The notes beneath the pieces are model-generated. The model worked only from the letters and a program-made list of their open reading frames with translations, did no database searches and had not been told where the DNA came from. This document shows positions 3,197-40,522 of a stretch of DNA of 64,000 nt, in pieces. Within the stretch, counting starts at the first letter, position 1; the number at the start of each line of letters is the position of its first letter. The DNA lies in the IMG/VR virus record IMGVR_UViG_3300027736_000026, positions 1-64,000 of that record; one strand, given 5' to 3'. The translations under genes were made by a program, and so were the position numbers. Origin of the DNA: a virus.

Positions 3197-3199
3197 AAT

Positions 3200-5320
3200 A
3201 TGAGTACAGTAAATGCAGGCGGAAGAAGTATAACAGACGGTTTAATTTTTCAATTAGATGGTGATCTTTCCGTTTCATATGTTAAAACTCCAAAGCAATT
3301 GAGCGGATGTATATTATGGCTCGATGCCTCGGATTCTTCAACTTTAACTACTGAAGGTATAGGTTATGTAAGATATTGGTCTGATAAAAGCACATCTGGT
3401 GTTGTGGCTACTGGCGGTGGATTAACTTTAGCGAATGAACCACTATTAACAAGTAATGCATTAAATGGTTTGTCTAGTATTTATTTTGACGGAACTGATT
3501 ATTTTGAAATTCCAAATAACTCCGCTTTACAAACTCAAAATGAAAAAACAATTTTTGTAGTTTATAAATACACAAAAGTAAGTAATACTAATTATGGAGT
3601 TTTAATTCAAAGAGGATCTGGTGATGCAAATGAAGAAATAAGACTTGCTGTTGTTAATAGTGCAGATTGGATATATTTTGATATTGGTGCTGGAGCCGGT
3701 CCTTATATTCAACCAACCGGACAAACAGCCAATATTAGAGATTACGCCGCAAATATAATTACTGCGACAGCAACAAGATCTGCTGGATCGTCTACATTAA
3801 AACTTTACTCTAATGGTAAAGATATGGGTGGATCTACACTTAGCCCGACACTTACTCCATCTGTTGGTTCATTTGTTACTAGTATAGGAAAACAAATAGA
3901 AGCCGCTTCAAATGTGAACTTTTTTACTGGTTTTATTTCTGAAGTTATAGTTTACAATCGTTGTTTGTCTGACACTGAAAGAAAACAAATTGAACAATAT
4001 TTGGGTTCAAAATGGGCAATACCACTAAGTTTAACAACATCAGTAACCAATGTTAGAGATTTGACTAATACTACAACATTAAATACAATATATCCAACCA
4101 CGTATCCTATATTACAACATCCATACAAAGATGCAATTGAACAAAATGCGCAATCAGATTATATTAGTTTTAATTCAAACACTACCATAAAAACTTTAGG
4201 TGCTATTCCATTTACTATTGAATGGGCATTTGCAATTATTGCTAGACCAAATAATGGTACAAATTATGGTATTTTTGATAATGGAGAATCATATCAAGTA
4301 AAAGGTGTGGTTATTAGAGTTGATGGTGCATCAAAAAGATTGTATGTGAGAATAAGCAGAGGTGGAGCTACATCTTTTACTGATTTTTATGACACAACCG
4401 TTTTAACAACTGGAAAGTATTATCATTATATTGTTTCGTATGATGGTGCTACTGTTCGTTTTTATTTGAATGGATCGTTAACAAATGCTGTAGCCTTTGA
4501 CAAAGGTACAACGGCGACAGATTCATTGTTTTATCCAACCGGTACAAGTCAAAATCTTCAAGGAGAAATTTTATTTTATAAAATATTTAATAGAGCATTA
4601 ACAACTGCTGAAGCATCTTATCAATATGAGTTGGAAAAAAATAGAATAACTTCTATGCCCAAAATTGTAACTGATGATCTTCTTTTGTGGTTAGATTGTA
4701 ATTATTATTCAAGTTATCCGATATCTGGTACAACTTGGTATGATTTAACCAACAGTCAAATAAATGGAAGTCTAAATAATGCTCCTACTTTTACTAGCAC
4801 TGAAGCAAGGAATCTTTTTTTTAATGGCTCTACTCAGTATGTGTCAGTAACCAGAACTTTATCTGTGCCAATGACTATTTCTGGATGGATGAAGTATACA
4901 GACCAAGCTAAAGCTTTAAATACTTTTATTAACGGTCAACCGCATAATACTATTGCAATATCATTAAACAGAGATGGTGCTGGTAATTTAGTAGTTTATC
5001 TTGGAAATGGAAGCGCTTGGATAGGCACACCATCTATCACTTCATCCTCAACAGTGACTGTTAATGTTTGGTATAATATTACATTTACATGTGATGGGAC
5101 AATTTCAACGCTTTATTTAAATGGTGTTGTTGTTGGGACAAGCTCTCATATCCCGTCTGGATTTGGGTCTTCTTTTTTTATAGGACATTTGACTGATAGT
5201 GTTTCTAGTTTAGAATATTTTAAAGGAAATTTTGCTAATTTCTTATTATATACTGCGTCTTTAACAAGCAATCAAATAGTTCAAAATTACAACGCTCAAA
5301 AATATAGATTTGGAAAATAA
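3200..5320 (+). CDS. Multi-LamG domain virion protein
   Basis: Three LamG-like units ending EVIVYNRCLSDTE, KIFNRALTTAE and LLYTASLTSNQIVQNYNA, with LWLDA/LWLDC starts. Confidence 0.8.
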   Translation: MSTVNAGGRSITDGLIFQLDGDLSVSYVKTPKQLSGCILWLDASDSSTLTTEGIGYVRYWSDKSTSGVVATGGGLTLANEPLLTSNALNGLSSIYFDGTDYFEIPNNSALQTQNEKTIFVVYKYTKVSNTNYGVLIQRGSGDANEEIRLAVVNSADWIYFDIGAGAGPYIQPTGQTANIRDYAANIITATATRSAGSSTLKLYSNGKDMGGSTLSPTLTPSVGSFVTSIGKQIEAASNVNFFTGFISEVIVYNRCLSDTERKQIEQYLGSKWAIPLSLTTSVTNVRDLTNTTTLNTIYPTTYPILQHPYKDAIEQNAQSDYISFNSNTTIKTLGAIPFTIEWAFAIIARPNNGTNYGIFDNGESYQVKGVVIRVDGASKRLYVRISRGGATSFTDFYDTTVLTTGKYYHYIVSYDGATVRFYLNGSLTNAVAFDKGTTATDSLFYPTGTSQNLQGEILFYKIFNRALTTAEASYQYELEKNRITSMPKIVTDDLLLWLDCNYYSSYPISGTTWYDLTNSQINGSLNNAPTFTSTEARNLFFNGSTQYVSVTRTLSVPMTISGWMKYTDQAKALNTFINGQPHNTIAISLNRDGAGNLVVYLGNGSAWIGTPSITSSSTVTVNVWYNITFTCDGTISTLYLNGVVVGTSSHIPSGFGSSFFIGHLTDSVSSLEYFKGNFANFLLYTASLTSNQIVQNYNAQKYRFGK

Positions 5321-5323
5321 TAT

Positions 5324-6130
5324 ATGTTAATAACAAAAACATTACCAATTTTAATTGTAGGTGGAACTGTAAATTATTATAGATCCAAAGGAGTTGTTTG
5401 CAACGTGGGCGACAAAATAAATTTGCCTGTAGAAATGTTAAAGAAAAATAGCGCTTCTAGAATTCAATATCAATGTGATAAATGTGGAGTGATAAAAGAA
5501 ACTCCTTATTCTGCTTTTAATAGATCGAATGATTGTTATTGTCATAAATGTAAATTAGGAATTTCAGGAGAAGAGAGAGTCGATAAATCAATTATCGGTC
5601 AAAGATTTAATAGATTAATCGTTTTAGAAAAATCTTACAGAAGAAATGATAGATGGTATTGGCTGTGTCAATGTGATTGCGGCAATAAACACAACGTTAT
5701 TTCTAAAGATTTAAAAAATGGAAACGTAGGATCATGTAAATGTTTGCAAAGAGAAAGAAAAATTGAAGGTGTTAGAAGATCATCGAAAGAAAGAGTTGGT
5801 CGGAAACATCATGCTTGGAATCACAATTTAACAGAAGAAGAAAGAAAATTAAGAAAAAATCAAAAATTTATCCTTAAAGGACTCTCTAGGTCTTGTTTCG
5901 AAAGAGATAGATTCCAATGTGTTATTTGCGATTCTAATAAAAATATACATGCTCATCATTTAAATTCATGGAAACATTTTTCAGGCGATAGATTTGAAGT
6001 CAATAATTTAATAACATTATGCAATCCTTGTCATAAGCAGTATCATAAACTAGTCAAACTAAAAGACGCAACCAAGGAAAATTTTAATATTTATCTTAAC
6101 AATATAAAGGAACAAAATGCTTCAGTATAG
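5324..6130 (+). CDS. HNH homing endonuclease with Zn-ribbon motifs
   Basis: C-terminal CVIC...HAHHLNSW...NLITLCNPCHKQYH. N-terminal CDKC, CHKC, WLCQCDCG and SCKC motifs. Lys/Arg rich. Confidence 0.85.
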   Translation: MLITKTLPILIVGGTVNYYRSKGVVCNVGDKINLPVEMLKKNSASRIQYQCDKCGVIKETPYSAFNRSNDCYCHKCKLGISGEERVDKSIIGQRFNRLIVLEKSYRRNDRWYWLCQCDCGNKHNVISKDLKNGNVGSCKCLQRERKIEGVRRSSKERVGRKHHAWNHNLTEEERKLRKNQKFILKGLSRSCFERDRFQCVICDSNKNIHAHHLNSWKHFSGDRFEVNNLITLCNPCHKQYHKLVKLKDATKENFNIYLNNIKEQNASV

Positions 6131-8150
6131 CCCCAAAATAGTTCAGGATTCTTTAGTGATGTGTTTAGATGCATCACAAAATAAATCATATCCAACTGAT
6201 TTGCCTGTAAAAAATGGATTGTTGGTTTGGTTAGATGCTGCTGATGACTCTACTTTTAGTTACAGTTCAGGCACAGAAGTAAGCCAATGGAGAGATAAAA
6301 GCGGAAATAATTTTCATGCAAATCAAGCAACAGTTGCATATCAACCGGGTAGGACATCAGTAAATAATGGCAGAAAGAGCATAAATTTTATTGCTGGTAA
6401 TTTTGATTATTTGACAATAACGTCTGGAATTTCTGTCCCAAATGATGTTAGTATTTTTATAATTTATAAACCTACAACGCAAACGAATCAATACGCTGTA
6501 TTAATTGATAACTATCATGCCGCTGTAACCTATACGGGATTTGTAATTCAAAGAAATTCTAATGCAAGTACTTTTTATTATGCAAATGGAAATGGATCTG
6601 CTTATTTAGATACTGCATCTAGCCAATGGTCTTATACAGATAATGTTATTGGGATATTGTCATTAAATAAATCTTCTTCGACTGCGACTCCTTATGCAAA
6701 TGGAACTGCTCAATCATCTTCAACTGTTAATGCTGCTATAGTTCAATCTACTACTGGTTTAGTTATTGGTTCTTTAGCTAGTGGAGCAAGTCGTTTTTAT
6801 AATGGTGATATGTGCGAAATACTTATTTTCAATAGATCATTAAGCTCTACTGAAATGAAACAAGTCCACACATATCTTGGACAAAAATGGGGTATATCAA
6901 ATACTGATAGAAGTTTTATTGATTTAGCAAACACAAGTAATTATTTTTATGCTGGCACTAATTTGCCTAGATTTGATTATTACAATAAAGGATCATTTGT
7001 AGGCTCATCTACATCAAATAGTTTTTTTCAATCTCAAAACTTGAATGTTGATTTTAATAAAGATTGGACCGTATCTATTTGGTTTAAACACAAAAATCCA
7101 TCAGATTGGGATTTTTTAATGGATTACGCTCAAGGTGGAGGAGGAACTTTATTGACAGTTTATTCAGGTCAATTAAGATGGAATTATGGTGCGTGGTTCA
7201 CAGATTCAGTAACTGATTCTCCTACTGCAAGAACTTATTTAGTACGAGATACTATTTATAACGCAGTATTTCAAAAATCAGGAACAACATTAAAAACTTT
7301 TTTAAATGGTGCGTCATATGGTTCACCAACAACGAATAGTCAAACTTTAACCGCAAATTCTACTTTAAGATTTGGCGTTGGTCCATCAGTAGGAACCGAT
7401 TCTTTTACCGGAAATATTTACGCATGTAATGTATATAGCAGAGCATTAAGTGCAACAGAAGTTGCTCAAAATTACGAAGCTCAAAAGTCAAAATTTGCAA
7501 ATACAATTGTACAACAAGGATTAGTATTAAATCTTGATGCTGGTAATCCATATAGTTATGGCGGCGCAGGAACAACATTTTATGATGTAAGTCCAACCGC
7601 TTTATCTTGGACAATTAATAATGCAACATATAATTCAAGTGATCCAAAATATTTTAGTTATAATGGTAGTGATAGTTGGTTACAATCATCTACTTCCGCA
7701 GCTTATGATTCTCAAACAATAACAATGGAATGTTGGTGTTATCCTAATAGCTTGAGTCAAAATGGATTCTTATTTGAAAAAGGACAAGTAAATACTCAAT
7801 ATAGCATGTTTTTTGAAAATGCAAATTTTGTATTTAGAACGATGGGTTCAGTAAGTAATCAAAGTTCGACTTTTTCTCCATCTACTTACTTAACTGTAAG
7901 CGCATGGAATCATATTGTCTGCACTTATAATGGAAGTTCAAAAATTATGTATGTTAATGGCATTCAAGTCCAAAGTGTAGCCGCTTCTGGAGCGCTTCCT
8001 ACTGGTCAAACAGATCAATATATCGGAAGACATAGCAGTGGTTATTTTTTCAATGGAAGAATAGGAGAAACAAGAGTTTATAATATTGCATTATCTGCCG
8101 CTCAAGTTTTACAAAATTACAATGCTACAAAAGGAAGATTTGGATTATAA
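6117..8150 (+). CDS. Multi-LamG domain virion protein
   Basis: Three LamG-like units (EILIFNRSLSSTE, VYSRALSATEVAQNY, RVYNIALSAAQVLQNYNATKGRFGL). Paralogous to 3200..5320. Confidence 0.8.
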   Translation: MLQYSPKIVQDSLVMCLDASQNKSYPTDLPVKNGLLVWLDAADDSTFSYSSGTEVSQWRDKSGNNFHANQATVAYQPGRTSVNNGRKSINFIAGNFDYLTITSGISVPNDVSIFIIYKPTTQTNQYAVLIDNYHAAVTYTGFVIQRNSNASTFYYANGNGSAYLDTASSQWSYTDNVIGILSLNKSSSTATPYANGTAQSSSTVNAAIVQSTTGLVIGSLASGASRFYNGDMCEILIFNRSLSSTEMKQVHTYLGQKWGISNTDRSFIDLANTSNYFYAGTNLPRFDYYNKGSFVGSSTSNSFFQSQNLNVDFNKDWTVSIWFKHKNPSDWDFLMDYAQGGGGTLLTVYSGQLRWNYGAWFTDSVTDSPTARTYLVRDTIYNAVFQKSGTTLKTFLNGASYGSPTTNSQTLTANSTLRFGVGPSVGTDSFTGNIYACNVYSRALSATEVAQNYEAQKSKFANTIVQQGLVLNLDAGNPYSYGGAGTTFYDVSPTALSWTINNATYNSSDPKYFSYNGSDSWLQSSTSAAYDSQTITMECWCYPNSLSQNGFLFEKGQVNTQYSMFFENANFVFRTMGSVSNQSSTFSPSTYLTVSAWNHIVCTYNGSSKIMYVNGIQVQSVAASGALPTGQTDQYIGRHSSGYFFNGRIGETRVYNIALSAAQVLQNYNATKGRFGL

Positions 8151-16947: not shown

Positions 16948-19900
16948 ATGGCTACATCAGCAGGATCAATTCCAATTACGGCAACATTTAATGCAGCACA
17001 GCTTGAAAAAGATGTGTTATCAGCGTTAACTCGTATCCAAAGCAAAAGCACACTTAATTTAAATACGAGGAATTTCACCCAACCATTGGGTAAAATCACT
17101 GGCCTTGCTAATGAGTTTAACAAATCTTTAGAAGCTTCAAATGCCCGTGTAGTCGCATTCGGCGCTTCTGCTGGTGTTATTTTTGCAGTTCAGAAGTCTT
17201 TTTCAGCATTAGTTAATACTACGATTGATGTAGAAAAGTCTCTTACTGATATCAATATTGTATTAAATACGTCTTCTGCTGGAATTAAAAAATTTGGTGA
17301 TCAATTATTTGAAGTAGCAAAAAATACTGGCTCTTCATTTAAAGATGCCGCTGGTGCTGCGACAGAATTTTCAAGACAAGGTTTAGGACTAGAAGAGACA
17401 CTAAGGAGAACTAGAGATGCTCTAATCTTAACTCGTCTTTCTGGTCTTGATGTAGTTTCCAGTACAGAAGCTCTTACTTCTGCTGTTAACTCATTTACAC
17501 AAGAAGCTTTAACAACTACAGATGTTGTTAATAAACTCGCAGCAGTTGACGCTAAGTTTGCTGTTAGCTCCAGAGATTTGTCAGAAGCTATCCAACGTGT
17601 AGGATCTTCTGCCAGCGAAGCTGGAGTTAGTTTCGACGAATTGCTAGGTATTGTTACTTCTGTACAGCAAACTACTGCCCGTGGTGGTGCTGTAATTGGT
17701 AATGCCTTAAAAACAATTTTCACAAGAATAGAAAGACCTCAAGTCATTAGCGATTTGAAAGATTTTGGTATTACTGTCGCTGATATTTCTGGGAATACTT
17801 TGCCGACAATTAAAATAATTGAAAACTTAGCTCAGTCTTTCCAAAATTTGAATCCAATTGTTAAATCTCAGGTCGCTGAACTTGTCGGTGGTGTTTATCA
17901 AATTAACATTTTAAAAGCTGCTTTGGCAGATGTTTCTAAACAAAACTCTGCTTTCGCCGAAGCGACGAAAGCATCTTCTCAAGCGGTAGATGATGCCATA
18001 TTAAAGAACAATGCATTAAATCAAAGCTTATCTGCTTTATTCAACGCAACAACAGCTAATTTTGCTAAATTTGCAGTTTCTATTGGCGAAAGCAGTGTGG
18101 CTCCCGGAATTAGAAAAGTTTTAGACTATGTTAATTCTGCTTTAGAAAGCTATAATGAAAAAGACTCTGAAAGTATAGGAAAAAAAATAGCAACAGGTTT
18201 ATTAACAGGCATTACTAGTTTTGTCACTGGCCCCGGTTTAGCTTTAGGTGCGCTTGCTGTAGGTAAATTAATAGGTAATTTTGCTTCTTTCGCTGGAGAT
18301 GCTACTAAAAACATTTTAGGATTAAATAGTTTAGGAAGACAACAAGCAGTTCTCCAAGGAGAAATAAGCAACATCCTTTCTAATAACCCTCAATTAATTC
18401 AACAAATAATAGCTGGTAGCAAGAGCCGCCTACAAGTAGAAAAAGAAATAAAACAAACTCTTATTGAACAAGCAGCAGTTTCAGAAATGCTTAAAAAAAG
18501 TTCGGCATCTATCGCTTATGGCTATATTGCGTCAGGTCTTGGGGTTTCTACATCTGGTGGTATTACTGGAAAAAGAGGAAGTGCTGGAGGTTATATTCCC
18601 GCTCGACAACAAGCTTCCGAAATGGTAGGGGCAATGCAAGGGGGTTATACTCCCGGTAAAGTAATTGCTGCCCCCAAATCAATTGGCGGCGTAATGAATA
18701 CTGCCGAAAAAGTTAAATATATTCCCGGCTTTGCTCAACCTTATATACTACCTCCTCAAGGATCTCGCGCAGCACAATCTTTGGCTTCAAAGTCAATGGC
18801 AAAGAATGGCATTAATCCTTATATGGCTAGAGGATTCGTGCCTAATTTCGGTGGTCCTCCACCACTAGATAACGCTGGCCGCTATGGGGATAATGATTAC
18901 TGGTATTCTTCTAAATCAGGGAAGACTTCTTTGAGTGAAGTTAGATTAAAAGATAAAGATGGTAATCCTGATAAAGCTGCTTGGGGTGGTCCAGATAAAG
19001 GATTTTATAGAACAGATGGTCTACCATTTACTGCAACTGATTTAAATAAATTCGTTAGAGCAGGAGTTACTTATGGAGAAATTAGACGGTATCTGCCTGA
19101 TTCATTTGTACAAGATGATCCAAGAGCTAAGGCAGGGGTATCATTAGATCAATTAAAAAAAGAGTATAAACCCGGAGCAAAAATAGCTACAGTAGAAAGC
19201 GTAAAGGAAGAAGCAAAAAGAGTGTTTGAACCTTTTACTCCTCCTGCTTCTATGTTGATTTGGGATCTTGCAGGAAAAAATAGTGACCAAGATGAGATAG
19301 TTGATTTAGAGAAGCTCACTGAAGATAAAAAACAAGCAGGAAGATCATTTAGAATTAAAATTCGTGCTTTATCAGGGAGTCCTTTGAATGAAGAAAAGTT
19401 TGGTTTAATTGATAAAACTTCTAAGTTTGCCCGTGATATAACAAAAAAATTAGCTACTGGAATTCCCGGAGCAAAATCAGATTACTCTGATAAGGAAGTA
19501 GATAGTTATTTTAACAAAACTGGTAAAAATTACAATGTATTAGCTGGTACGATATTTGAAGCTGGAACTAACTTAGCAGCAAGCTACGTTAGAGATCAAG
19601 AGTTTAACAAAACTGCGTCAAAATTAAGTGCTATAGGTGGAGACTTTGACGTTAAGGGAGGAGCGAACCTTGCTAATGTCCAAAAATTCTTTCCCGGATT
19701 TACTGATTCTTATGGCGATTATAAGCTAAATAATTCTTATGACGCAATCAGAGAGTTTATTGATAAAGTTCGAAAAGAATTCCCTCTTGAAATAGGCAAC
19801 CATTTTGATAAACAAGAATCAAAAATAGCAGGAATAAAAACAAGTGCTAAAGGTTTTATTCCTAATTTTGCTCAAAAAGATTTTCAAACAGTAAATACCG

Positions 19901-22900
19901 CTAGACTAATGGGAATTAATTTAGCACAAATGGATATTAATCCCGAAACAGTATTTAGAGAGTCTTTGCAAAACGCTGTCGCTCACGGTCAATCAGGACA
20001 AGAAAAAGGAGTTTTCATTGGAACAAGCGGATATGGAAAACCAAATGAGTTTGCAATTAGTGATGTCGGCACTGGAATGTCCCCTGAAGATGTCTTTACT
20101 AAATTTTTACCATACGCTCAAACAGGAAACGAAGGAGGCAATAAAGGATTGTCTGGATTCGGAATGGGAAAAGCTTCTATTTTCATGGGTTCTAAGAAGT
20201 TCCTTCTTGATACTATAAAAGAAATAAATGGTAGAAAAATAAGAACAATTGTTTCTGGAACTCCAGAAGGATGGAATAATTTTATACAACAGGGCAAAAT
20301 AAGCTTAGATGATAATCTTTTTAATCAACCAAGAGGTGATTTAAATTTTGATGGATTAAAAATGTTTTGGAGAGAAGTTAATCCAGAAAAAAAGAATACT
20401 CCAGTAATGGGAACTACTTTTGCTGCTTCTCCTTCTAAAGAGGGCTATATATCTTATGGAAGTTATTTAGAGAATAGAGCAGGAAAAGTAGCAGAACTTC
20501 CATTTAAATTTACTACTGCTTCTTCTGGTTTATTGAAGCAAACAATTAATACTAGAAATGAAGATCCTAGCTATAGAAAATATTATTTTTCTAAATTTGA
20601 TCCTAGTAAATCTTCAGTACAAAGAACTTTAACGGCAGAAGGTGGAGAAGTAGATATATTGTTTGATCCTCAAGGAGATCCTCAAAAAACTTATGGATAC
20701 GCTCAGATTCCCATGCTGTCAGAGGGAATGAAGTATGCTAACTATAAAGTACAAGGAGTAGACTATATTCCTAAAAGTTTAATGTTTAATGTTAGGAGTA
20801 ATGTTGGTGCAGGTGATCCAAATTATCCTTGGAATACTGACAGAACTGAGTTAAGAGGGCCATTAGGCAAAATGGCAAAATCTGCCGTACAGGATTTAGC
20901 TGCACAATTAAAACGCGCTCAAGAAGATAGCGTTAGGAATGTCCCTTCTTATCAAATGGGTTCTGATCTTGAGCTTCTTGATGTTTCTTCTTCTTTGCCT
21001 AAAGGAACAATGGAGAGTATTGCTGGAAATCCTAAATTCCAAAATTTTGGTACTGCTTTAAAAAGCGTTTTTGAACAAACAATTGGACAGGCTTCTGAGA
21101 TTTTTGATCCAAGAATGGCTAATGCTTCATTTAGAGGTTTAGCTGTTGGAGCTAATTGGATGGGTTTAAATACTGCTTCATCAAAAGAAGTAGGTACGAA
21201 ATCTATAGTTGAACCATTTGCTCATGTAGAGACAGTTATAGATAGAATTAGAAAGATTTCTCAAGAAAAAGCTAAACAAGGAAAGAAAATAAAATCAGTT
21301 GGTAAATTTAGAGACATCTATTCTAGAGAAATATTAGATACTGTTTTTCATGAAGCCGCTCACCAAGTTAATAGAACAGAAGGAGAAGCTCATGCTAAAT
21401 CAATGGCAAGCGTTTGGGCAGCTAACGCAGAGCAAGTAGGCTCTTATTTAAAAGAAATTCAAGGTTCACTAACTCCCGAGTTGATGAACTTCATCATTTC
21501 TACTTATAAGCAAAACAAATCTATTATTGATGAGGGCAAATCTTCAAAGTTTAGAGATTTCGTATCTAATTATTCATCGGGTCATATACCTAATTTTGCA
21601 AAACCAAAAATAAAATCTTTTAAAACAGGAGAAGGCGAAAGAGTTTTAGGTCCTACGGCGATAGTCAATAAGCAAACTAGAGAAAAATTTATTGAAAAAG
21701 TTTTAGCGGGACATCAAGACAAGAGCTATATAAGATACTCCAAAAAAGATAACTCTATTGATGTAGATTTCGTTCGTTCTTCTAGAAGAGGGGATGGAGG
21801 AATGCTTTGGGATAGAGCGGGAAATATAGCTAAACAATTTGATATCCCATTAACTACAAGCGCATTTATACCTCAAATAGAAAATCTTGAAAAGTACGAC
21901 GCAGAAACTAATTCTTTCGGAGACGTTCTCTCTACAGGGTTCCCTCAATTAAAATGGAGCGAAAGAGGTAAAGCTAAAAACACTAAATTAAATGTTTATA
22001 ATAATCACTTACAATATCCAGTAGACTCAAAACGCACATTTTCAGAAGCGCAATCTATATTAAATAATATATATAAATATAACGCTCCTTCTTTAAAAGA
22101 TTCTATTTTGTCTGAATCCACTTATATACAAGATATTGTCAGTTATTTTGCAAAAGGGCATGTCCCTAATTTTAATGCAGTCCAAGAAGCAATAGGAAGA
22201 GAGATGTCCGCTGGATACTCCTCTTCTCAAGTTAAAGTAGGCCAAAGCAGCAAGCTAAAGACAAATTTCAATCCAATGGGATTAGGAGTTTATAACTCCA
22301 CAGAAGGTTCTCTTAATGGTGGAATTGGGTTAGCAGAAAAAGCTGGCATAAACCCCAAAACAAAAGGTATGTCTGCAAGGGGACATATTCCTAATTTTGC
22401 TGAATTTGGTGGGGTAGATTTTTCTATTGCAATTGGTGCCTTGGCTTTGTTTGCTACTTCTATAAAAAGTTCACTTGATTCATTTAAAAATTTAAATCAA
22501 GCATTAGAAGTTACAAAAAAAACTAACGCTGATGCTGCTAAGGCATATGAAGCAGAGCTAAAAAAAGGATCAGGAACGATAGCAAAAGAATTTGCTGCTA
22601 GAGAAAAACTAATACAGGATGAAATTAAAAAAACTTTTACAAACGTAAACAATAAATTAAAATTAACAGGTACTTTAACTGCTCCTTTAGTAATGGGTCC
22701 ACCTACTAGAGATAAATTTGGGATAATTACTCGTTCTCCTCAAGCCGCCTCTGCGGATGAAGTGGCAAGACTAGCAGAATTAAGAGAGCAACGAGCGGCA
22801 AATAGAAAAGAAAAATTAGCTCAACGAGAAGCTGCTAGAACAGGGAAAGCTGAAGCAGAAGCGGCACTTTCTTTAGCAAGCGCTAGTACATTTGATTCAA

Positions 22901-25900
22901 AAACGATGTTTAAATACGATTCAAAGTTTAGTAATTATGCTAAGGCAATTGGAACGCCAGTAGGTTTAGGGGTAAGCGCAGCATCAAATATTGGTGGTCA
23001 ATTTGTTTCTCCAGAAAACAAAACAGGCAAAGCAGCCTATTCTGGACTTGGTGATGTAGCTAGTTTTGCAGGTTTAGGAGCCCAATTTGGCGCTCCCGGA
23101 GCAATTATTGGTGCAGTCATTGGATTTGGATCGGCTATTTTAAAATTTAAAGATGCAAAAGCAGAAGAAGCTATTGATAAAATAAATAAAAGTTTAGACG
23201 AAACAAAACAAAAATCTTCTGATTTTTCTGGCGCTGCACAAGGTTATTCCTCTTCTTTACAAGGGTTGCAAGATGCTTTAAATGACCCTAAAACTAAACC
23301 AGAAGCTTTGTTAAAATTTCAAAATAATTTAACAGAATCTCTTAGCTCTATCCCAGAAGAATTTAGAGTAAAAGTACTAAAAGCGGGGACAGACATAACA
23401 AAAGTCACTGAAGCTATTGCTGGAGTAAATAAAGAGTTGGGAAATACTCAAAAAAATATTGAAAAACAATTACTTATTGCGAATATAATTAAATCAGAGT
23501 CAGGCCTGTTTGACAGTACTTCAGTATCGCCGCAAAATCAAAAAACATTAAATGCCTTATTTTCTTCTTCTTTGAATACAGAATCTATTACGAGTAATTT
23601 TAAAGGGCCAAACGCAACTGATGAAATGAACACTTTTTTTAATAATATAAAAAAACAAGCTATAGGAACGGCACCTATGTATATCTCAGATGAAGGCGGA
23701 GACACATACCTTGGAGAACTTCCTTCCTTAAATAGATCAGCTTCAGAAAGTGTAAAAAAAGAATTACAAGCCAAAGGAGGTCTTCCTGACATATTAGGGC
23801 CTGTTCTCGATTCTGCTTTTAAAACATTTGATGTTACTGCTGTAGAATCAATTATTGATGCATTAAAAAAACAAGGGTTAGCAATTATTGATAGCGCGAA
23901 AAGAGCGAAAATTCTTACTGACATTGTAGATGATAACACTAAAAGGACTATTGCATTTGCCGAAGCTCTAAAACAATTAAATGCAACATATAATGCCTCT
24001 AACCTTTTGATCTCTAATCAAATAGATATAGAGAAAAATCGCGCTAAGGCTATTAGAGAGATAAATAAAATACAAGCTGAAGGTGCGATTTCTGTTCAAA
24101 GGGCTAGAATTAAAGGTCTTTTAGATGCTTCTAGTCCTATAATTAGCGAAGGAGCCAAAAATAATATTCAATCTCAGTTAGATGTTAATGAAATAGACAC
24201 TAGGCAAAGTTCTAAAATACGAGAAGCTTCAAATAAGGTTCTTGATTCTTTTTCAGAGACTATAACTAAAAGAGCCGAAGAAGCTAGAGGCACTATTGTT
24301 TCGGTTATTGAAAATGCTAGAGATGACGCAGCAATAACAAAAGAAAGAAGTATATTTCAAGCGCAAATACAAAAATTAACTCCTCTTATTTCTGCATCAA
24401 TAAAAAGGGTTGCTGAAGGCGGAAATATTGGAGATATCCGAAATAGTTTAGAACAAGAAATTAGAGGGGCGAATAACGCTTTTAAGCCTGAGCAACAGGA
24501 AGTGCTAATTCAATCTCTTAATTTATCTTTCTCTAGTTTCCAAGATACTCTCGCAGAAATCAAAGCTCAAGGAGATGTAGATAGGGAAATTCAGCAAGCT
24601 CAAAGAGAATATCAAAAACAATCATTAGCTTTAAATCAAAGACTTTCTTTTGCTGGCGGTGCCCAAGCTTTGGGTTCAACTGGTAAAACTGGAGTCTCTG
24701 ATCTTTTTGATAGCCTTTCTGAATTAGTTTCAGAATTTAGACAGACTAATGCTATTGGAAACGCTGCTCAAAAGGGCTCTACTTCTTTTAAGTTTTTAGA
24801 TATCTTAACTAATCAATTACAGTTAAATAGAGCTACTGAGGCTCCTGTACCGTATAAAGATGCTCAAAGCTTTAATAAACAAGTTTCTTCTGACTTGAAT
24901 CCATTAGCAGCTACAGCAATTGCAGGAAGAGTTCAGCAAATAAGAGAGAGCTTAGATTTAGCTAAAAATGTTACTGAAATTCAAACAGGAAAATCAACAG
25001 AAGGTACTGCTTTGGGTAAAGCTTTTGATATGGCTAAAGAAGGCGCAGTGAAAACTGCTTTAGATCAAATAGCTTCTCAATTTAAGTTAGAAAACATGGG
25101 CAATTATCTTGACGTATTGCAGCAAGAGGCTAGATATTTAAATGAGTTGACAACTGATCAAAATGAAATTTTGGCGAGGACATTGCCAAAATCTTTGAAT
25201 GATAATTTCAATTCAGTAATAAGAACACAAGTAGGTGATAAATTAGGAGAATTAACTCGTTCTTTAAGTGAGGTTATTAATGAATTATCTACTAAAACTC
25301 AAAAAAATATACTTGATACTGAAATACGAAACCTTTTACCTGCTAATGTAGATCCGAAAGGAAGAGAAGAAATATTAAAACGCATAATAGGATCAGGAGA
25401 TTTAAAAGAAAAAGGAACCAAGGTTCCAGCAACATCGCTGGTCTATTCAAAAGAAAGCGAGGCTAAAATAAGGGCTTCAAGAGAAAAAGAAATCAAGCAA
25501 TTACAAGATTATTTTGAAAGCTTTAACACGCTAAAAGTAGTCGGAGACCAAAGCTTATACGGCAGGACTGCCAGCGAGATAATGGGAAATCCAAACGACA
25601 AAGCAGTAAGAGATGATTATGGCAATATTGAAGGTGGTGTCGTTTATAGGCCGGGTTATCGCGGAGCAAAAACCTTGGCGGATCGAACCGTTAGGGATAA
25701 AGCGATTGAATTGCAAGAAACTTTTGGAACAAGTGATGAATCTGTAAACAGAAATCAAAAAAGATTAAGTCAATTAATTGATTCACGCAAAAAACCAGCA
25801 TTAGGATTTGCTAACGAAAGAATGGATTTTACTGGGACATACAAAGAACTTGTTGATAATATAAATAGAGACTTTCAAAGCTCCATGACAGAACAAGATA

Positions 25901-27774
25901 TAATTTCTATTAAAGAAAAAGATGCAAAAAAAACGAAGATAGCCGAAGGGATCATGCGTCCGCGTACAAAAGAAAGCGAATTTGGACCTTTTGCTGGCGG
26001 ATATAAATTTCCATTAGACGAACCACTTAGTTATCAGTCTCGACTGCCTGATGACATGTTAAAAAGGACAAGAGAGAATATACAGAGGCTTGATGAGTTT
26101 TCAAATAGGAGATTCGATAACGAAGATCTCAATCAGATTAATATTAAAATAGAAGAACTATTAAACAAAAAACAAAAAAGCGCAGAAGAAGAAGAAAAGC
26201 TTTTAAAATTACAAATTGATATCAGAAACAAAACTTTGGAAATACAAAATAAAATTGCTGAAGACCAATTTAAATTGTATTATAAAAGCGCATTTGGCAA
26301 CAAGTTTTTCAAAGACGAAAGAGCGGCTTTTGCTAATGCCAGAATTGAAAGCAATGCTCGCGAAGGGAATGTAGATATAGGAGCTATCACTGAAAAAAAT
26401 ACTACTTACAACAAAGCAGATTTTGCCAGAGACACTGGTCAACTAATTGATACATTTCAAACTGATTTTAAGTCTGGTATTGGCAGCGCATTTGGCGAAG
26501 CTATCAAAGGCACTAAAACCCTTAAAGATGCATTTAGAGACATGTTCCAAGGTATCTTAAATAGAATGCTTGATAAGTCTTTAGAGATGGGAGTTGATGC
26601 TTTGTTTGCTTTTGGTAAAGCCGCTGCTGGACTTAAAAATGGTGGCGAAATAAAGAAATATAATTCTGGAGGTATGGTTACTGGCGGCTCTGGGATGAAA
26701 GATGATGTGCCCGCGATGATGAGCGGCGGCGAGTATGTCATTAAGAAATCTTCTGTTGATAAATATGGATCTGACTATTTAAGGAATCTAAATGGTGGAA
26801 TTATCCCAAGATATGCAACTGGAGGATTCTCTATTGGCCCATTACAAAATGAATTCTTGTACGATAACCCTGATCGCCCAACTTCTGGAGAATACGCTGT
26901 TGATTCTAGATTGTCAGCCGCAGCCCTAACTGACGACAGTAATCCTCAAAATAAGTTAAGACAAGATCGTTATGAAAAACTTGATCAGTACTTACAAGAC
27001 CGAGCGCAATATGAGGCAGACAAGAAGCAGAGCCTTAAAAACTATAAAAATCAAGTAAATAGTACCTTCTATTCGGGATTAGCTGCCGCTGGCATTCAAA
27101 TAGCTTCTGCTGGCCTCACAATGGGAGCAGAAAAATTAAGAACACCTAAAGCTACAGTCGGCAAACCTTATCAGGCGTACTCATCTTCTATGCCTAATTA
27201 TACTGGAAAAAAAGCAAGTGGTGGTTATATTGCTAAATTTGCTGGCGGCGGCTCTACAGGCCAAGACAATATCCCCGCTTTGTTAATGGGCGGCGAATAC
27301 GTCATGAATAAAAAAGCCGTCGATATGTACGGCAAAGATTTCATGGGTCAATTGAATTCTGGTTCTCTTCCTAAATATGCTAGAGGCGGGATGGTGGGAA
27401 CAAGTTATAGTGGTCAAAGCAATACAGACCAGTCTTCTAGCATGGATGAATTAGTAACTGCATTGAATACTTTAAATGATAACTTATCTAAGGATTCGGG
27501 AATAACTCAATCAGAATCAGGAAGGTCTTCTCTTGCTGGAGCTACCCAAGAGTCTGGTATGTCTGTAGTAAATAATATTTCAATTAACATGTCTCAAGGC
27601 GGCGAAGTTACCTCTGAAGCTAACTCCAGCACTCAAAAAGGCGCATCCAATTCCAAAACCGATCAGAACAGCATTCAAAACAATGGCAAACTTGCTGAGT
27701 TACTTAGAAGCAAAGTTGTTGAAGTATTAGTCGAACAAAAGAGACCCGGAGGATTACTTTACTCCAGTAGATAA
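16948..27774 (+). CDS. Tape measure protein (3608 aa) with embedded enzymatic cassettes
   Basis: N-terminal TP901-type TMP core (EFSRQG...LSEAIQRVGSSA...GAVIGNALKTIFTRI), Gly/Ala hydrophobic stretches, long coiled coils and two C-terminal D[DN][VI]PAxxxGGEYV motifs. Internal GHKL and HExxH motifs. Confidence 0.9.
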   Translation: MATSAGSIPITATFNAAQLEKDVLSALTRIQSKSTLNLNTRNFTQPLGKITGLANEFNKSLEASNARVVAFGASAGVIFAVQKSFSALVNTTIDVEKSLTDINIVLNTSSAGIKKFGDQLFEVAKNTGSSFKDAAGAATEFSRQGLGLEETLRRTRDALILTRLSGLDVVSSTEALTSAVNSFTQEALTTTDVVNKLAAVDAKFAVSSRDLSEAIQRVGSSASEAGVSFDELLGIVTSVQQTTARGGAVIGNALKTIFTRIERPQVISDLKDFGITVADISGNTLPTIKIIENLAQSFQNLNPIVKSQVAELVGGVYQINILKAALADVSKQNSAFAEATKASSQAVDDAILKNNALNQSLSALFNATTANFAKFAVSIGESSVAPGIRKVLDYVNSALESYNEKDSESIGKKIATGLLTGITSFVTGPGLALGALAVGKLIGNFASFAGDATKNILGLNSLGRQQAVLQGEISNILSNNPQLIQQIIAGSKSRLQVEKEIKQTLIEQAAVSEMLKKSSASIAYGYIASGLGVSTSGGITGKRGSAGGYIPARQQASEMVGAMQGGYTPGKVIAAPKSIGGVMNTAEKVKYIPGFAQPYILPPQGSRAAQSLASKSMAKNGINPYMARGFVPNFGGPPPLDNAGRYGDNDYWYSSKSGKTSLSEVRLKDKDGNPDKAAWGGPDKGFYRTDGLPFTATDLNKFVRAGVTYGEIRRYLPDSFVQDDPRAKAGVSLDQLKKEYKPGAKIATVESVKEEAKRVFEPFTPPASMLIWDLAGKNSDQDEIVDLEKLTEDKKQAGRSFRIKIRALSGSPLNEEKFGLIDKTSKFARDITKKLATGIPGAKSDYSDKEVDSYFNKTGKNYNVLAGTIFEAGTNLAASYVRDQEFNKTASKLSAIGGDFDVKGGANLANVQKFFPGFTDSYGDYKLNNSYDAIREFIDKVRKEFPLEIGNHFDKQESKIAGIKTSAKGFIPNFAQKDFQTVNTARLMGINLAQMDINPETVFRESLQNAVAHGQSGQEKGVFIGTSGYGKPNEFAISDVGTGMSPEDVFTKFLPYAQTGNEGGNKGLSGFGMGKASIFMGSKKFLLDTIKEINGRKIRTIVSGTPEGWNNFIQQGKISLDDNLFNQPRGDLNFDGLKMFWREVNPEKKNTPVMGTTFAASPSKEGYISYGSYLENRAGKVAELPFKFTTASSGLLKQTINTRNEDPSYRKYYFSKFDPSKSSVQRTLTAEGGEVDILFDPQGDPQKTYGYAQIPMLSEGMKYANYKVQGVDYIPKSLMFNVRSNVGAGDPNYPWNTDRTELRGPLGKMAKSAVQDLAAQLKRAQEDSVRNVPSYQMGSDLELLDVSSSLPKGTMESIAGNPKFQNFGTALKSVFEQTIGQASEIFDPRMANASFRGLAVGANWMGLNTASSKEVGTKSIVEPFAHVETVIDRIRKISQEKAKQGKKIKSVGKFRDIYSREILDTVFHEAAHQVNRTEGEAHAKSMASVWAANAEQVGSYLKEIQGSLTPELMNFIISTYKQNKSIIDEGKSSKFRDFVSNYSSGHIPNFAKPKIKSFKTGEGERVLGPTAIVNKQTREKFIEKVLAGHQDKSYIRYSKKDNSIDVDFVRSSRRGDGGMLWDRAGNIAKQFDIPLTTSAFIPQIENLEKYDAETNSFGDVLSTGFPQLKWSERGKAKNTKLNVYNNHLQYPVDSKRTFSEAQSILNNIYKYNAPSLKDSILSESTYIQDIVSYFAKGHVPNFNAVQEAIGREMSAGYSSSQVKVGQSSKLKTNFNPMGLGVYNSTEGSLNGGIGLAEKAGINPKTKGMSARGHIPNFAEFGGVDFSIAIGALALFATSIKSSLDSFKNLNQALEVTKKTNADAAKAYEAELKKGSGTIAKEFAAREKLIQDEIKKTFTNVNNKLKLTGTLTAPLVMGPPTRDKFGIITRSPQAASADEVARLAELREQRAANRKEKLAQREAARTGKAEAEAALSLASASTFDSKTMFKYDSKFSNYAKAIGTPVGLGVSAASNIGGQFVSPENKTGKAAYSGLGDVASFAGLGAQFGAPGAIIGAVIGFGSAILKFKDAKAEEAIDKINKSLDETKQKSSDFSGAAQGYSSSLQGLQDALNDPKTKPEALLKFQNNLTESLSSIPEEFRVKVLKAGTDITKVTEAIAGVNKELGNTQKNIEKQLLIANIIKSESGLFDSTSVSPQNQKTLNALFSSSLNTESITSNFKGPNATDEMNTFFNNIKKQAIGTAPMYISDEGGDTYLGELPSLNRSASESVKKELQAKGGLPDILGPVLDSAFKTFDVTAVESIIDALKKQGLAIIDSAKRAKILTDIVDDNTKRTIAFAEALKQLNATYNASNLLISNQIDIEKNRAKAIREINKIQAEGAISVQRARIKGLLDASSPIISEGAKNNIQSQLDVNEIDTRQSSKIREASNKVLDSFSETITKRAEEARGTIVSVIENARDDAAITKERSIFQAQIQKLTPLISASIKRVAEGGNIGDIRNSLEQEIRGANNAFKPEQQEVLIQSLNLSFSSFQDTLAEIKAQGDVDREIQQAQREYQKQSLALNQRLSFAGGAQALGSTGKTGVSDLFDSLSELVSEFRQTNAIGNAAQKGSTSFKFLDILTNQLQLNRATEAPVPYKDAQSFNKQVSSDLNPLAATAIAGRVQQIRESLDLAKNVTEIQTGKSTEGTALGKAFDMAKEGAVKTALDQIASQFKLENMGNYLDVLQQEARYLNELTTDQNEILARTLPKSLNDNFNSVIRTQVGDKLGELTRSLSEVINELSTKTQKNILDTEIRNLLPANVDPKGREEILKRIIGSGDLKEKGTKVPATSLVYSKESEAKIRASREKEIKQLQDYFESFNTLKVVGDQSLYGRTASEIMGNPNDKAVRDDYGNIEGGVVYRPGYRGAKTLADRTVRDKAIELQETFGTSDESVNRNQKRLSQLIDSRKKPALGFANERMDFTGTYKELVDNINRDFQSSMTEQDIISIKEKDAKKTKIAEGIMRPRTKESEFGPFAGGYKFPLDEPLSYQSRLPDDMLKRTRENIQRLDEFSNRRFDNEDLNQINIKIEELLNKKQKSAEEEEKLLKLQIDIRNKTLEIQNKIAEDQFKLYYKSAFGNKFFKDERAAFANARIESNAREGNVDIGAITEKNTTYNKADFARDTGQLIDTFQTDFKSGIGSAFGEAIKGTKTLKDAFRDMFQGILNRMLDKSLEMGVDALFAFGKAAAGLKNGGEIKKYNSGGMVTGGSGMKDDVPAMMSGGEYVIKKSSVDKYGSDYLRNLNGGIIPRYATGGFSIGPLQNEFLYDNPDRPTSGEYAVDSRLSAAALTDDSNPQNKLRQDRYEKLDQYLQDRAQYEADKKQSLKNYKNQVNSTFYSGLAAAGIQIASAGLTMGAEKLRTPKATVGKPYQAYSSSMPNYTGKKASGGYIAKFAGGGSTGQDNIPALLMGGEYVMNKKAVDMYGKDFMGQLNSGSLPKYARGGMVGTSYSGQSNTDQSSSMDELVTALNTLNDNLSKDSGITQSESGRSSLAGATQESGMSVVNNISINMSQGGEVTSEANSSTQKGASNSKTDQNSIQNNGKLAELLRSKVVEVLVEQKRPGGLLYSSR
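18580..22401 (+). repeat. Six dispersed peptide motifs xxG[FYH][IV]P(NF) within the TMP
   Basis: SAGGYIPAR 18580, MARGFVPNFG 18823, SAKGFIPNFA 19843, YSSGHIPNFA 21571, FAKGHVPNFN 22147, SARGHIPNFA 22372. Confidence 0.9.
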
Positions 27775-36616: not shown

Positions 36617-37348
36617 TTATATATTATAAATTTCGTTTTTAACGTCTTTAGCGGTTGACTTAACATCAAGTTCAACATTATTCATTGATATCTCAACTGT
36701 TTGAGAGCCTATCCTCATCCTCCCATATCCAACTGGCACAGGGCCACCTTCTCCAAGAATGTTAGAAGGGCCATCAAATAAGTAGCTAGGTTTACCGCCT
36801 CCGTTATCTATTTTCCTAAAATCATCAAATTTTGGAGGAGACATCATCAATAAAGTGACACCAGTTACGGCCAAGCCAATGCCTGCTCCAATTAACGCAG
36901 CAGAAAGAACAGTGGCAGCAGTTGATGATGCAGCAATGCCCAACATAGCGACTCCTCCTGCGGCTCCAATGCCTGATGCAATTAATAAAACACCAAGCAC
37001 TAAAGCTAAAACTCCTTTTGTTGTGCTATCGCCACCACCGCCAGCACCTTTGATAATTGGAACAATGTCTAAAGTTTCTAATTTTTCATTAATCATTACT
37101 AATTCAGAATTGACAATAGACTCTGGCATTTCTAGAGAAATATTTTCTGGATTTATTATTTCTCTTTTATTGACTAGTACTTTATATTCTACGCTTTTTT
37201 CTGCGGCTCCAATTAGATATTTTAACAATTTACCCTTAGACAATACTTGAATAGCTCGTAAGGCTTCCTTTATGGAAGTTACGTTTAAGCTCCAATTCTC
37301 TCTGCCTACCTGTTCTGCTATTTCACCGTGTAAAGTTATGTTAGTCAT
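36617..37348 (-). CDS. Tail assembly protein, lambda gpI-like
   Basis: ITLHGEIAEQVG...EALRAI (ubiquitin-like N-terminus), IVPIIKGAGGG, hydrophobic segment, SYLFDG...GGPVPVGYGRMRIGS. Confidence 0.9.
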   Translation of the reverse strand: MTNITLHGEIAEQVGRENWSLNVTSIKEALRAIQVLSKGKLLKYLIGAAEKSVEYKVLVNKREIINPENISLEMPESIVNSELVMINEKLETLDIVPIIKGAGGGGDSTTKGVLALVLGVLLIASGIGAAGGVAMLGIAASSTAATVLSAALIGAGIGLAVTGVTLLMMSPPKFDDFRKIDNGGGKPSYLFDGPSNILGEGGPVPVGYGRMRIGSQTVEISMNNVELDVKSTAKDVKNEIYNI

Positions 37349-38087
37349 AGAGGTTGTTTCTCATTATATAAATTACCCATTTTTTATATCTATTAGAAAG
37401 TCTTTCGGTAATAGAGATTCCGTCTCCCGGATGATGTAAGATCGTGTCTTTACCTAAATAAACCGCACAATGAATAGGAAAATTGAATTTCTCTGTTCTC
37501 ATTATTAGGACATCGTTTTTCTTTAAGTCGTAAACCTGCCTAAAATTATTATACTCAAAATATTTTTTTAAATAATTGTCTTTATTTTTTAAAGATTCTG
37601 CTTCATCAATGAATCTTTTGCTCGCCATTTCATTAAATTCTTCTTCAGAAACATTACTTTTAAGAGCTTCTAATTCTGGGCAAAGATGGATGTTTAAATC
37701 ATGGCAGTAATAATCTTTTACTAGCCACAAGCAATCAGCAAACCCCAAAAGGAAAGGCCTTCCTGTGTACTGAATTTTATAACTATTTGGATTATAGATG
37801 TAGAAAGATCCGCTTTGCTTATTGTAAATAATACAGGCTAAACCAAGCCTTTCCGAAACAATCTTGTCCGCTTCTGAAATAGCATCAAAATTAATATGAG
37901 AATGATAATATGCAGCAATGCCAGACTGACCATTCAAATCCATCATGAACTCAGTAGCAGAATTAATTAGATTTTCTTTTTTTTCAATCGCTAATCCGCC
38001 ATCTGTGCGTACTAAAAATCCACACACTTCATTATTGGAAGTATTAGCGTGTTCAATGATCTGATTTTTTATTTCTTCTGTTAACAT
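37341..38087 (-). CDS. Tail assembly protein, lambda gpK-like (JAB/MPN + NlpC/P60), copy 2
   Basis: EVCGFL, YHSH...SEAD, YTGRPFLLGFADC, HCAVYLG...ILHH. Confidence 0.88.
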   Translation of the reverse strand: MLTEEIKNQIIEHANTSNNEVCGFLVRTDGGLAIEKKENLINSATEFMMDLNGQSGIAAYYHSHINFDAISEADKIVSERLGLACIIYNKQSGSFYIYNPNSYKIQYTGRPFLLGFADCLWLVKDYYCHDLNIHLCPELEALKSNVSEEEFNEMASKRFIDEAESLKNKDNYLKKYFEYNNFRQVYDLKKNDVLIMRTEKFNFPIHCAVYLGKDTILHHPGDGISITERLSNRYKKWVIYIMRNNLYD

Positions 38088-39963: not shown

Positions 39964-39967
39964 AATC

Positions 39968-40522
39968 TTATGCTGGGACTTCTTCGAAGGTAGTTTTTAT
40001 AGAGAAATTATTAAAGAATGGATTAGATGATCCCCATCTTCTACATACAAATAATTTGGCATCTGTAGCCGCAACTGTATAAGGTGCAGATGGGTAATAA
40101 ATAAAAGCTGTCTTGGCTGACCTTGCGCTAAAGAAATGAAGGATAGCAGTACATTCATCTAAGGTTAACCCGTCAAAATTCAATTCAAAATTGAGAAGAT
40201 TAAAGTTAATTTGATCGCTTACTCTTTTTTCGTATCCATCTCCATATTTTATTACGCTAACTTTGGGTTCAAAATTAGCTTGGGTCTGATAAGACGGTCT
40301 CCAAATGAACAAAGGATAATCTTTTTTAATTACTGGGTGTTGAAAATAACCTCCCCAGTAAGCGTCCGAATTAGATATCACGCTAGAGTAAACTGGTGGA
40401 TTATTCGCGGGCACAGCGGCTTTAGCGTAATAATATCGATTATCTGTGTATACGATAATATCATGCTTATTGTATGCGACAGAATTACTCCATGAACTAA
40501 TATTAAAAATTGAGCTAGACAT
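39968..40522 (-). CDS. Minor tail protein, lambda gpM-like
   Basis: FIWRP...KYGDGYEKR...F...ILHFF...AFIY...FEEV. Confidence 0.85.
   Translation of the reverse strand: MSSSIFNISSWSNSVAYNKHDIIVYTDNRYYYAKAAVPANNPPVYSSVISNSDAYWGGYFQHPVIKKDYPLFIWRPSYQTQANFEPKVSVIKYGDGYEKRVSDQINFNLLNFELNFDGLTLDECTAILHFFSARSAKTAFIYYPSAPYTVAATDAKLFVCRRWGSSNPFFNNFSIKTTFEEVPA

Follow-up and report, generated by a model that had tools for sequence, protein, structure and literature searches.

A probable Hsp90-type ATPase joined to a zincin-like domain and carried between linkers in a phage tape measure protein

What would an ATPase and a peptidase-like HExxH motif do inside the protein that serves as the length ruler of a phage tail? 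The question is raised by the window studied here, the whole 64,000-nucleotide stretch of viral DNA at positions 1 to 64,000 of IMG/VR record IMGVR_UViG_3300027736_000026. Within it, a single open reading frame (ORF) of 3608 aa on the plus strand (16948–27774) contains the entire block 19873–21570, which reads in frame 1 as 566 residues with zero stops. A preliminary description of this DNA had seen in that block a GHKL ATPase with its catalytic Glu and Asn, followed by an HExxH domain, inside a tape measure protein. Translation confirmed all the GHKL boxes and the HExxH motif at the coordinates given below, and motifs, structure model and family profile agree on this arrangement. Our answer is that the block, here called cassette B, would be one conserved, horizontally exchanged three-domain module acting as an ATP-regulated cargo hydrolase delivered at infection, a statement that, taken as a whole, has in our judgement about an even chance of being right.

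The carrier is solidly identified as a tape measure protein. PhageMin_Tail (Pfam) matches residues 122–310 of the ORF (E 6.1e-28), and 13 of its 15 PHROG matches are tape measure families, some at the N end (20–983) and one at the C end (3098–3316); a long helical C part and a neighbourhood of tail genes complete the picture. The ORF is also punctuated by five G[FH][IV]PNF motifs, at aa 629, 969, 1545, 1737 and 1812 (window starts 18832, 19852, 21580, 22156 and 22381, spanning 18832–22398). By composition 1.5e-4 copies are expected, and among 20000 shuffles only 3 contained one or more copies, with a maximum of 1. Cassette B (19870–21579) fills exactly the space between the second motif, GFIPNF at aa 969–974 (19852–19869), and the third, GHIPNF at aa 1545–1550 (21580–21597), so that the whole ATPase and zincin-like module lies between two delimiters. 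With at least four unrelated cassettes within the single ORF, the make-up of this tape measure is of the polyvalent type.

The Hsp90-like ATPase and middle domains

Residues ~1–215 of the segment (19873–20517, on the plus strand like all features of the cassette) are predicted to form an ATP-binding domain with a Bergerat (GHKL) fold of the Hsp90 type, as judged from the structure model, the alignment to Hsp90 and a profile match to HtpG. All four GHKL motifs are present in the correct order, and their key residues are strongly conserved across the 150 aligned rows, from the best 150 of 195 relatives, on which the conservation and context counts rest. Motif I (N box), VFRESLQNA at 19951–19977, carries Glu30 (147 of 150) and Asn34 (146 of 150); motif II (G1 box), ISDVGTGMS at 20056–20082, carries Asp64 (149), Gly66 (146) and Gly68 (149). 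Motif III (G2 box), GLSGFGMGKAS at 20146–20178, contributes Gly95, Gly97 and Lys100 (138, 147 and 145 of 150, respectively), and motif IV, VMGTTF at 20404–20421, Gly180 (146) and Thr181 (126).

The AF2 model of the 566 residues, computed with a 38-row alignment, reached a pLDDT of 79.2 and a pTM of 0.67 and was weak only at residues 1–15, in the lid (84–95) and in a loop at 218–245. The modelled ATP-binding domain includes an N-terminal strap (residues 1–21) and a low-confidence lid (84–95). A Foldseek search of the model against the PDB returned 426 matches at E ≤ 0.001 with TRAP1, Grp94 and Hsp90 on top, the best being TRAP1 4j0b_A (E 1.3e-10). When model residues 1–356 were compared with solved chains by VIA-align, Hsp90 7l7i_A was matched at Z 16.2 (278 residues aligned with an rmsd of 4.4; chain residues 20–433) and Hsp90 2cg9_B at Z 16.0 (chain residues 6–413), both ranges being the N plus middle domain, and the ATPase regions of GyrB, ParE, Topo VI-B and Topo II aligned to the same part of the model at Z 14–15. 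The Bergerat alpha/beta sandwich implied by the boxes was thus found in the prediction, at Z 14–16 to known members.

At the level of sequence, a profile made from 11 family members matched, among PDB sequences, HtpG (E 1.8e-19), TRAP1 (1e-14) and Grp94 (7e-13), as well as Hsp82, which identifies the N-terminal ATPase domain as one of the Hsp90 type. Since the top 60 PDB sequences of this profile are all Hsp90-family proteins, we name Hsp90 as the closest GHKL branch; MORC, MutL and sacsin were considered for that place and passed over on the same matches. Searched on its own, the copy in the window gave no phmmer match among PDB sequences at E ≤ 10 and nothing better than E 0.015 in an NCBIfam scan, and a PHROG scan of the cassette returned phrog_6361 alone, a family of unknown function (E 0.0014).

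The preliminary description had taken the stretch between VMGTTF and HExxH for a spacer of about 300 aa. These ~310 residues are instead accounted for by an Hsp90-like middle domain and the N-terminal half of the zincin-like domain. The middle (transducer) domain is placed at residues ~246–356 (20608–20940) by the alignment of the model to the N plus middle part of Hsp90; the family profile gave no significant alignment to a middle domain. It contains the near-invariant loop YPWNTDRTEL (20824–20853), with Tyr318, Pro319 and Arg324 in 149, 148 and 149 of 150 rows, respectively. From the aligned ranges this loop is a candidate counterpart of the middle-domain loop that carries the catalytic Arg of Hsp90, the numbering of which we presume to place that Arg near Arg324. 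The Hsp90 alignments end at model residue 356, and the C-terminal dimerisation domain of Hsp90 is absent. We regard it as highly probable that residues 1–356 are an Hsp90-type ATPase plus middle domain.

Prediction of two copies of residues 1–356 together with ATP and Mg gave a dimer score of 0.68, and the best of three controls scored 0.00. The same mark is attained by 20 of 30 proteins solved as same-chain pairs, compared with 1 of 23 whose structures are single chains; these counts are rough, since our own alignment and riding ligands were used. The runs agreed in at least 91% of contacts, with a partner pLDDT of at least 71, and the predicted interface involves the strap (1–21), the lid (75–84), residues 96–98 and 137–147, and the loop 313–329. 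The interface pattern is that of closed Hsp90, including the strapped N-terminal dimer. Because Hsp90 and other GHKL dimers are already solved, this result may reflect memory of those structures and indicates likeness only.

Taken together with the Hsp90 proteins HtpG, TRAP1, Grp94 and Hsp82, the cassette shares the Bergerat domain, the four motifs, an LY-type helix upstream and the middle domain that follows. Unlike them, it has a zincin-like domain where the C-terminal dimerisation domain would be, is only 10–15% identical to them in sequence, and sits within a tape measure or polyvalent protein of a phage.

The zincin-like domain and the module family

The C-terminal part of the segment, residues ~357–566 (20941–21570), was assigned from the model and a fold search. 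Residues 329–566 modelled alone reached a pLDDT of 88 and a pTM of 0.85, with a layout that starts with a helix and a three-stranded sheet, after which come another helix, the HExxH helix and three more helices. HEAAH (21349–21363) is the sole HExxH in the whole tape measure ORF and lies on a helix, as in zincins. Its two putative metal-binding histidines, His493 and His497, are each kept in 146 of 150 rows, and the putative catalytic Glu494 in 147. The fold search, which covered 48161 representative chains, returned 24 chains at Z ≥ 5 and none at Z 8, middling values given that a best Z of 7–8 is common for models without a true match. YbeY was the top fold (1oz9_A, Z 7.5, rmsd 3.2, 112 residues aligned; 1xm5_A, 7.1; 7y7o_A, 6.5), in company with Wss1 (5xbn_A, 7.1; 5ln5_A, 6.9), ERAP1 (7.0) and SPRTN (6.2), and further top rows were aminopeptidases N and A and BepA. 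The aligned range, 37–199 of this model, corresponds to segment residues 365–527. Because the top rows are near-exclusively zincins and His493, Glu494 and His497 are near-invariant, we consider it likely that residues ~357–566 are a zincin-like hydrolase domain.

A third His had been proposed to complete the metal site, as in SprT/WLM-like zincins. The His in question, His507 (21391–21393), proved to be specific to a subfamily, as only 21 of 150 rows have His there (Phe in 91, Leu in 23). By contrast, in the column at +6 from the second His, 96 of the 150 rows have His, 50 have Glu and 1 has Asp, and the copy in the window has Glu503 (21379–21381). With His or Glu in 146 of the 150 rows at this column, Glu503 is the likely third ligand, with a spacing like that of WLM/SprT and YbeY, and we propose a His-His-Glu site in place of the three-His one. 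The likeness to SprT/WLM itself holds in part. Wss1 and SPRTN are among the nearest solved folds, together with YbeY, and the family majority has His at +6; HExxHx5H, found in 70 of 150 rows, is absent from the copy in the window, where HEAAHQVNRTE departs from the WLM/SprT signature by its Glu at +6. Neither Pfam nor phmmer against PDB sequences gave a sequence-level match of this domain to the WLM/SprT or YbeY families, and nothing about the module points to a DNA or RNA context like that of those enzymes.

To define the family, an exhaustive HMMER search was made of 1.84 billion representatives at 50% clustering. It found 195 relatives at E ≤ 0.001, 38 of them at ≤ 1e-10 and 4 at ≤ 1e-30, so that the module family is large. 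Among those listed, 149 of 150 were kept as colinear modules; P0052 (P numbers denote representative relatives, L numbers IMG/VR loci) is a repeat protein with insignificant matches only and was left out. By phmmer most relatives match in at least two colinear stretches, and a few match the ATPase part or the C-terminal part only. In further IMG/VR loci the full-length module was present in 10 of 11, in ORFs of 1320–2803 aa (local HMM E 1e-132 to 1e-173). As both sets of catalytic residues are near-invariant, the family is apparently under selection for activity. A FastTree tree of 144 of the 150 rows (P0048, P0050, P0065, P0071, P0093 and P0121 were left out as fragmentary or poorly aligned) grouped the copy in the window with P0003 (support 100) and put P0005 elsewhere, such that the tape measure label needs 2 changes. 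This hints at more than one capture into tape measures; branches are long and joins unsafe, and we draw no conclusion from it.

The host proteins are mostly giant (1200–5900 aa) and almost all from phages. In P0020 the module occurs together with LPD38 and an SNF2-type helicase C domain, P0006 has a weak GNAT match and L013 a methyltransferase domain, and P0010 (513 aa) is a stand-alone module. As an observation in its own right, P0030 (825 aa) has an Acb1-like 2H phosphoesterase (PF23474, E 5.3e-8) directly upstream of the module, and this anti-CBASS-type domain hints that the module accompanies counter-defence enzymes.

Among structure collections, the nearest ESM Atlas clusters are viral hypothetical proteins of 495–631 aa, with HATPase_c_3 on ~70% of members. 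In BFVD, a 1404-aa viral protein matches best and covers the entire module (E 3.9e-16, TMq 0.52). Next come RIIA-like phage proteins, which match the N plus middle part (Vibrio phage KVP40 RIIA, E 1.1e-8, and many others, ~360–370 columns). Among viral proteins with a name, these give that part its best structural matches; like it they have an N-terminal GHKL ATPase, which in their case is followed by a variable C-terminal part. Unlike the module, they have no HExxH domain and are encoded by genes of their own rather than as cassettes of a tape measure, and neither PHROG nor Pfam gave a sequence match to RIIA in the copy in the window. In the relevant passages of a published account, RIIA-like proteins are phage-encoded GHKL proteins linked to host conflict (PMC7824862). 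A tblastn search of 50,697 phage records retrieved one, the hypothetical gp154 of Arthrobacter phage Atuin (28.6% identity over residues 10–132), and a homologue search with the family alignment gave 5 proteins, none informatively named.

Polyvalent proteins offer the closest precedent for such hosts. In the main text of Iyer et al. 2017, the zincin-like peptidase is their commonest domain, with auto-processing or effector roles proposed (PMC5512222). The proteins that carry our cassette resemble the injected polyvalent proteins described there, and its HExxH domain has the same make-up (helix, three-stranded sheet, two helices) as the zincin-like metallopeptidase (MPTase) domains of phage and plasmid polyvalent proteins, and likewise lies within giant multi-domain phage proteins in company with unrelated enzyme domains. 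As far as that text describes them, the MPTase domains differ in three respects. The zincin-like domain of the module is always preceded by the Hsp90-like N plus middle part as a single unit, its candidate third ligand stands at +6 in a loop and is not a Glu on a distant second helix, and the host in the window is a tape measure protein. The main text of PMC5512222 contains no mention of Hsp90, GHKL, HATPase, histidine kinase or tape measure; its supplementary domain tables might use another label. No description of a zincin linked to a domain of Hsp90-like or GHKL type, whether in tape measures or in polyvalent proteins, was found in the literature, supplementary tables not being covered. The individual parts are of known kinds (GHKL/Hsp90-type ATPase, zincin, polyvalent cargo and tape measure); their fusion and its linker-bounded carriage in a tape measure seem to be undescribed.

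Several observations weigh against reading the module in this way. On the ATPase side, the HMM search gave a divided answer. The copy in the window remains below both Pfam cut-offs (HATPase_c_3, 23.7 bits versus 25; HATPase_c, 22.6 versus 26.4), while relatives pass them (P0044 with 57.7, P0007 with 42.8 and P0006 with 35.4 bits; 6 of 6 IMG/VR host ORFs), in line with the family profile. The same copy has Ala at the family Asp37 and Asn at the family Lys86 (each kept in 143 of 150 rows), and because of these two replacements its ATPase may be altered or weak. On the side of the C-terminal domain, in addition to the middling Z values, Foldseek found nothing at E ≤ 0.001 (best E 0.26, in a weak list composed mostly of zincins), and YbeY, the top fold match, is a ribonuclease and not a peptidase. 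As to context, PHROG scans of 10 genes neighbouring the non-tape-measure hosts in L013 and L011 left 8 of 10 matchless and pointed to no structural or packaging context.

Cassette exchange and possible roles of the module

Splitting 23 related tape measures at their linkers yielded 16 cassette clusters, one of which, cluster 4, comprises the GHKL-zincin cassette with 10 members of 570–590 aa. Cassettes are swapped, lost or multiplied among phages whose N domains are 87–89% identical. Compared with the tape measures of L001, L002 and L007, the protein in the window is 83% identical in its N part, 51% in cassette A, 98–98.6% in cassette B, 84% in cassette D and 58–62% in the C part, with cassette C unmatched. 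The step is equally evident in DNA: in 300-nt bins against L002, identity is 58–88% up to ~19.7 kb, then 94%, 97% and 99–99.7% across 20.0–21.5 kb. Cassette B occurs at 98–99% identity in eight IMG/VR loci. Because the step affects synonymous and non-synonymous sites alike, these sequences are best explained by a recent exchange of cassette B by recombination between diverged phages.

In the mechanism that we favour, the cassette would be an optional cargo enzyme rather than part of the length ruler, and would leave the tail with the tape measure protein at infection. Siphophage tape measure proteins exit the tail at infection, and cytoplasmic action of the module after injection is plausible, as ATP is present there. 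The ATPase half would close on ATP into an N-terminally strapped dimer in the manner of Hsp90 and presumably hydrolyse it, and the ATP-closed clamp would control or feed the zinc hydrolase, which stands where Hsp90 has its C-terminal dimerisation domain. The hydrolase would most likely be a protease, with host proteins or the carrier's own cargo as its targets.

Enzymatic domains in tail rulers have a precedent in mycobacteriophages, whose tape measures contain embedded peptidoglycan-hydrolase motifs, cell-wall enzymes that act outside the cytoplasm. These are likewise enzymatic domains within a tail ruler that are presumably delivered at infection. In contrast to them, the cargo in cassette B would need ATP, is delimited by linkers and is exchanged as a cassette. 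If the favoured mechanism is true, phages bring into their hosts an Hsp90-like machine that depends on ATP and is fused to a zinc hydrolase, carried by tail rulers and giant polyvalent proteins. This would be a new enzyme class in the early, protein-borne arsenal of phages and a new coupling of ATP to proteolysis, with a GHKL clamp in the role of the AAA+ ring. The cassettes would also constitute a natural platform for swap-in cargo. Given such a system and the recent exchange of cassette B, the carriage and release of folded enzymes by tape measures becomes directly testable.

How the two halves would be coupled is a further question, and one answer, which we advance tentatively, is an ATP-gated protease switch. 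The module would be open and inactive in the ATP-free virion, and cytoplasmic ATP would close the strapped dimer and thereby turn on the zincin, which would cut host defence or housekeeping proteins or free neighbouring cargo. In MARTX and large clostridial toxins, the processing protease is switched on by inositol hexakisphosphate, which is found only in the target cytosol. Were the switch real, it would be the phage counterpart of such small-molecule-activated toxin proteases and the first case of a protease powered by an ATPase of the GHKL rather than the AAA+ type.

A chaperone is somewhat less probable than the switch. On this explanation the Hsp90-like half would refold the ejected polyprotein cargo in the host, the HExxH domain being accessory or regulatory. 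Folded domains of such size hardly pass the tail tube, so cargo would have to refold, and it is the Hsp90 chaperone family that gives the N and middle domains their best matches in both sequence and fold; the module is also present in many multi-domain giant proteins. However, the Hsp90 C-terminal dimerisation domain is missing, many related tape measures carry cargo without the module, and stand-alone copies exist. Moreover, conservation of the HExxH residues (146–147 of 150) equals that of the ATPase residues, and this speaks for a hydrolase partner that is catalytic.

The preliminary description had also suggested that the zincin processes the polyprotein, that is, that it is a maturation protease of the tape measure that cuts the G[FH][IV]PNF linkers to free the cassettes. 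The module is flanked by two of them, and the main text of PMC5512222 predicts that zincin-like peptidases of polyvalent proteins auto-process their carriers. All three tape-measure-type representatives with the module have repeated linkers; this was set aside as support, since they were found with the module as query and the co-occurrence is ascertainment. When 20 IMG/VR loci were collected with the tape measure N domain, 7 had linkers and the module, 11 had linkers only, 1 had neither and 1 was truncated. The 11 tape measures without the module, of which 9 are complete ORFs and 2 have an open 3' end, carry 4–8 linkers each, and none of the 6 checked contains an HExxH motif. Conversely, 146 of the 149 other representatives lack the linker motif, with one copy in P0121 and 7 each in P0003 and P0005, the only two representatives with the same tape measure N domain as the window. 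The module is dispensable for the linker architecture, and because 11 loci have linkers without it, that architecture is independent of the zincin and the proposal of processing loses most of its support. Other candidate peptidases adjoin the tail-tip genes of the window (one with Prok-JAB plus NlpC/P60 and a second NlpC/P60). Cleavage of the linkers by the module is accordingly doubtful.

It is improbable that the C-terminal domain, instead of being a peptidase, is another metal-dependent hydrolase that the ATPase drives or gates, such as a YbeY-like ribonuclease. YbeY provides the top structural match, and the spacing His x3 His x5 His, which we take to be that of YbeY, equals the HExxHx5H spacing ascribed to the majority of the module family. 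Against this, the Glu after the first His is retained as in peptidase zincins, and Wss1, SPRTN and M1 aminopeptidases come within 1 Z unit of YbeY, which amounts to a tie.

Least probable of all is a decayed, non-catalytic passenger that adds only mass or length to the tape measure, a view to which the missing Asp37 and Lys86, the scores below the Pfam cut-offs and the dispensability of the cassette in relatives lend something, but which is countered by the intact 566-aa frame with core catalytic residues in both halves, by eight IMG/VR loci that keep the cassette at 98–99% identity, by its recent spread through recombination, and by the fact that a globular domain is a poor ruler element.

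Neighbouring genes and other cassettes

Lambda-type tail-tip genes lie downstream of the tape measure ORF on the opposite strand, with matches to Phage_min_tail, Phage_tail_L, Prok-JAB plus NlpC/P60 and a second NlpC/P60; the stretch 37341–40522 on that strand holds Phage_tail_L, Phage_min_tail and a gpK-like JAB/NlpC-P60 gene, and an ORF of 2442 aa is also among the opposite-strand genes. At 37341–38839 (minus strand) there are two adjoining gpK-like genes, one with Prok-JAB and NlpC/P60 and the other with NlpC/P60 only, which are possible peptidases for the maturation of the tail or tape measure.

Within the tape measure, cassette C (21598–22155, ORF aa 1551–1736), the neighbour of cassette B, had no family match in Pfam or NCBIfam scans. 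Its cluster has 20 members, with three tandem copies in each of L020, L022, L028, L029 and L030, and its site holds a different, unrelated cassette in L001, L002 and L007. Members of cassette cluster 5 (P0003 aa 947–1357 and 1364–1581, P0005 aa 1943–2187, L023 aa 1536–1759) start with a Gly-rich loop and, after it, a Val-Ile/Ser-Lys stretch, an arrangement that, judged by eye, is reminiscent of protein kinases; Pfam gave no kinase match on P0003 or P0005 at E ≤ 0.01. P0003 also holds a DUF7178 cassette (aa 664–868). Right behind the last linker of the tape measure in the window begin hydrophobic Gly/Ala-rich stretches (22399–22480 and ~22990–23170, ORF aa 1818–1845 and ~2010–2075), which, judged by eye, may be its membrane-inserting part.

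Farther upstream, at 1613–8150 on the plus strand, three large ORFs of 527, 706 and 677 aa match common PHROG families annotated as virion structural protein. All three share phrog_8510 and two of the three have phrog_10356, with the matches in similar C-terminal parts, and the three look like paralogous decorated structural proteins.

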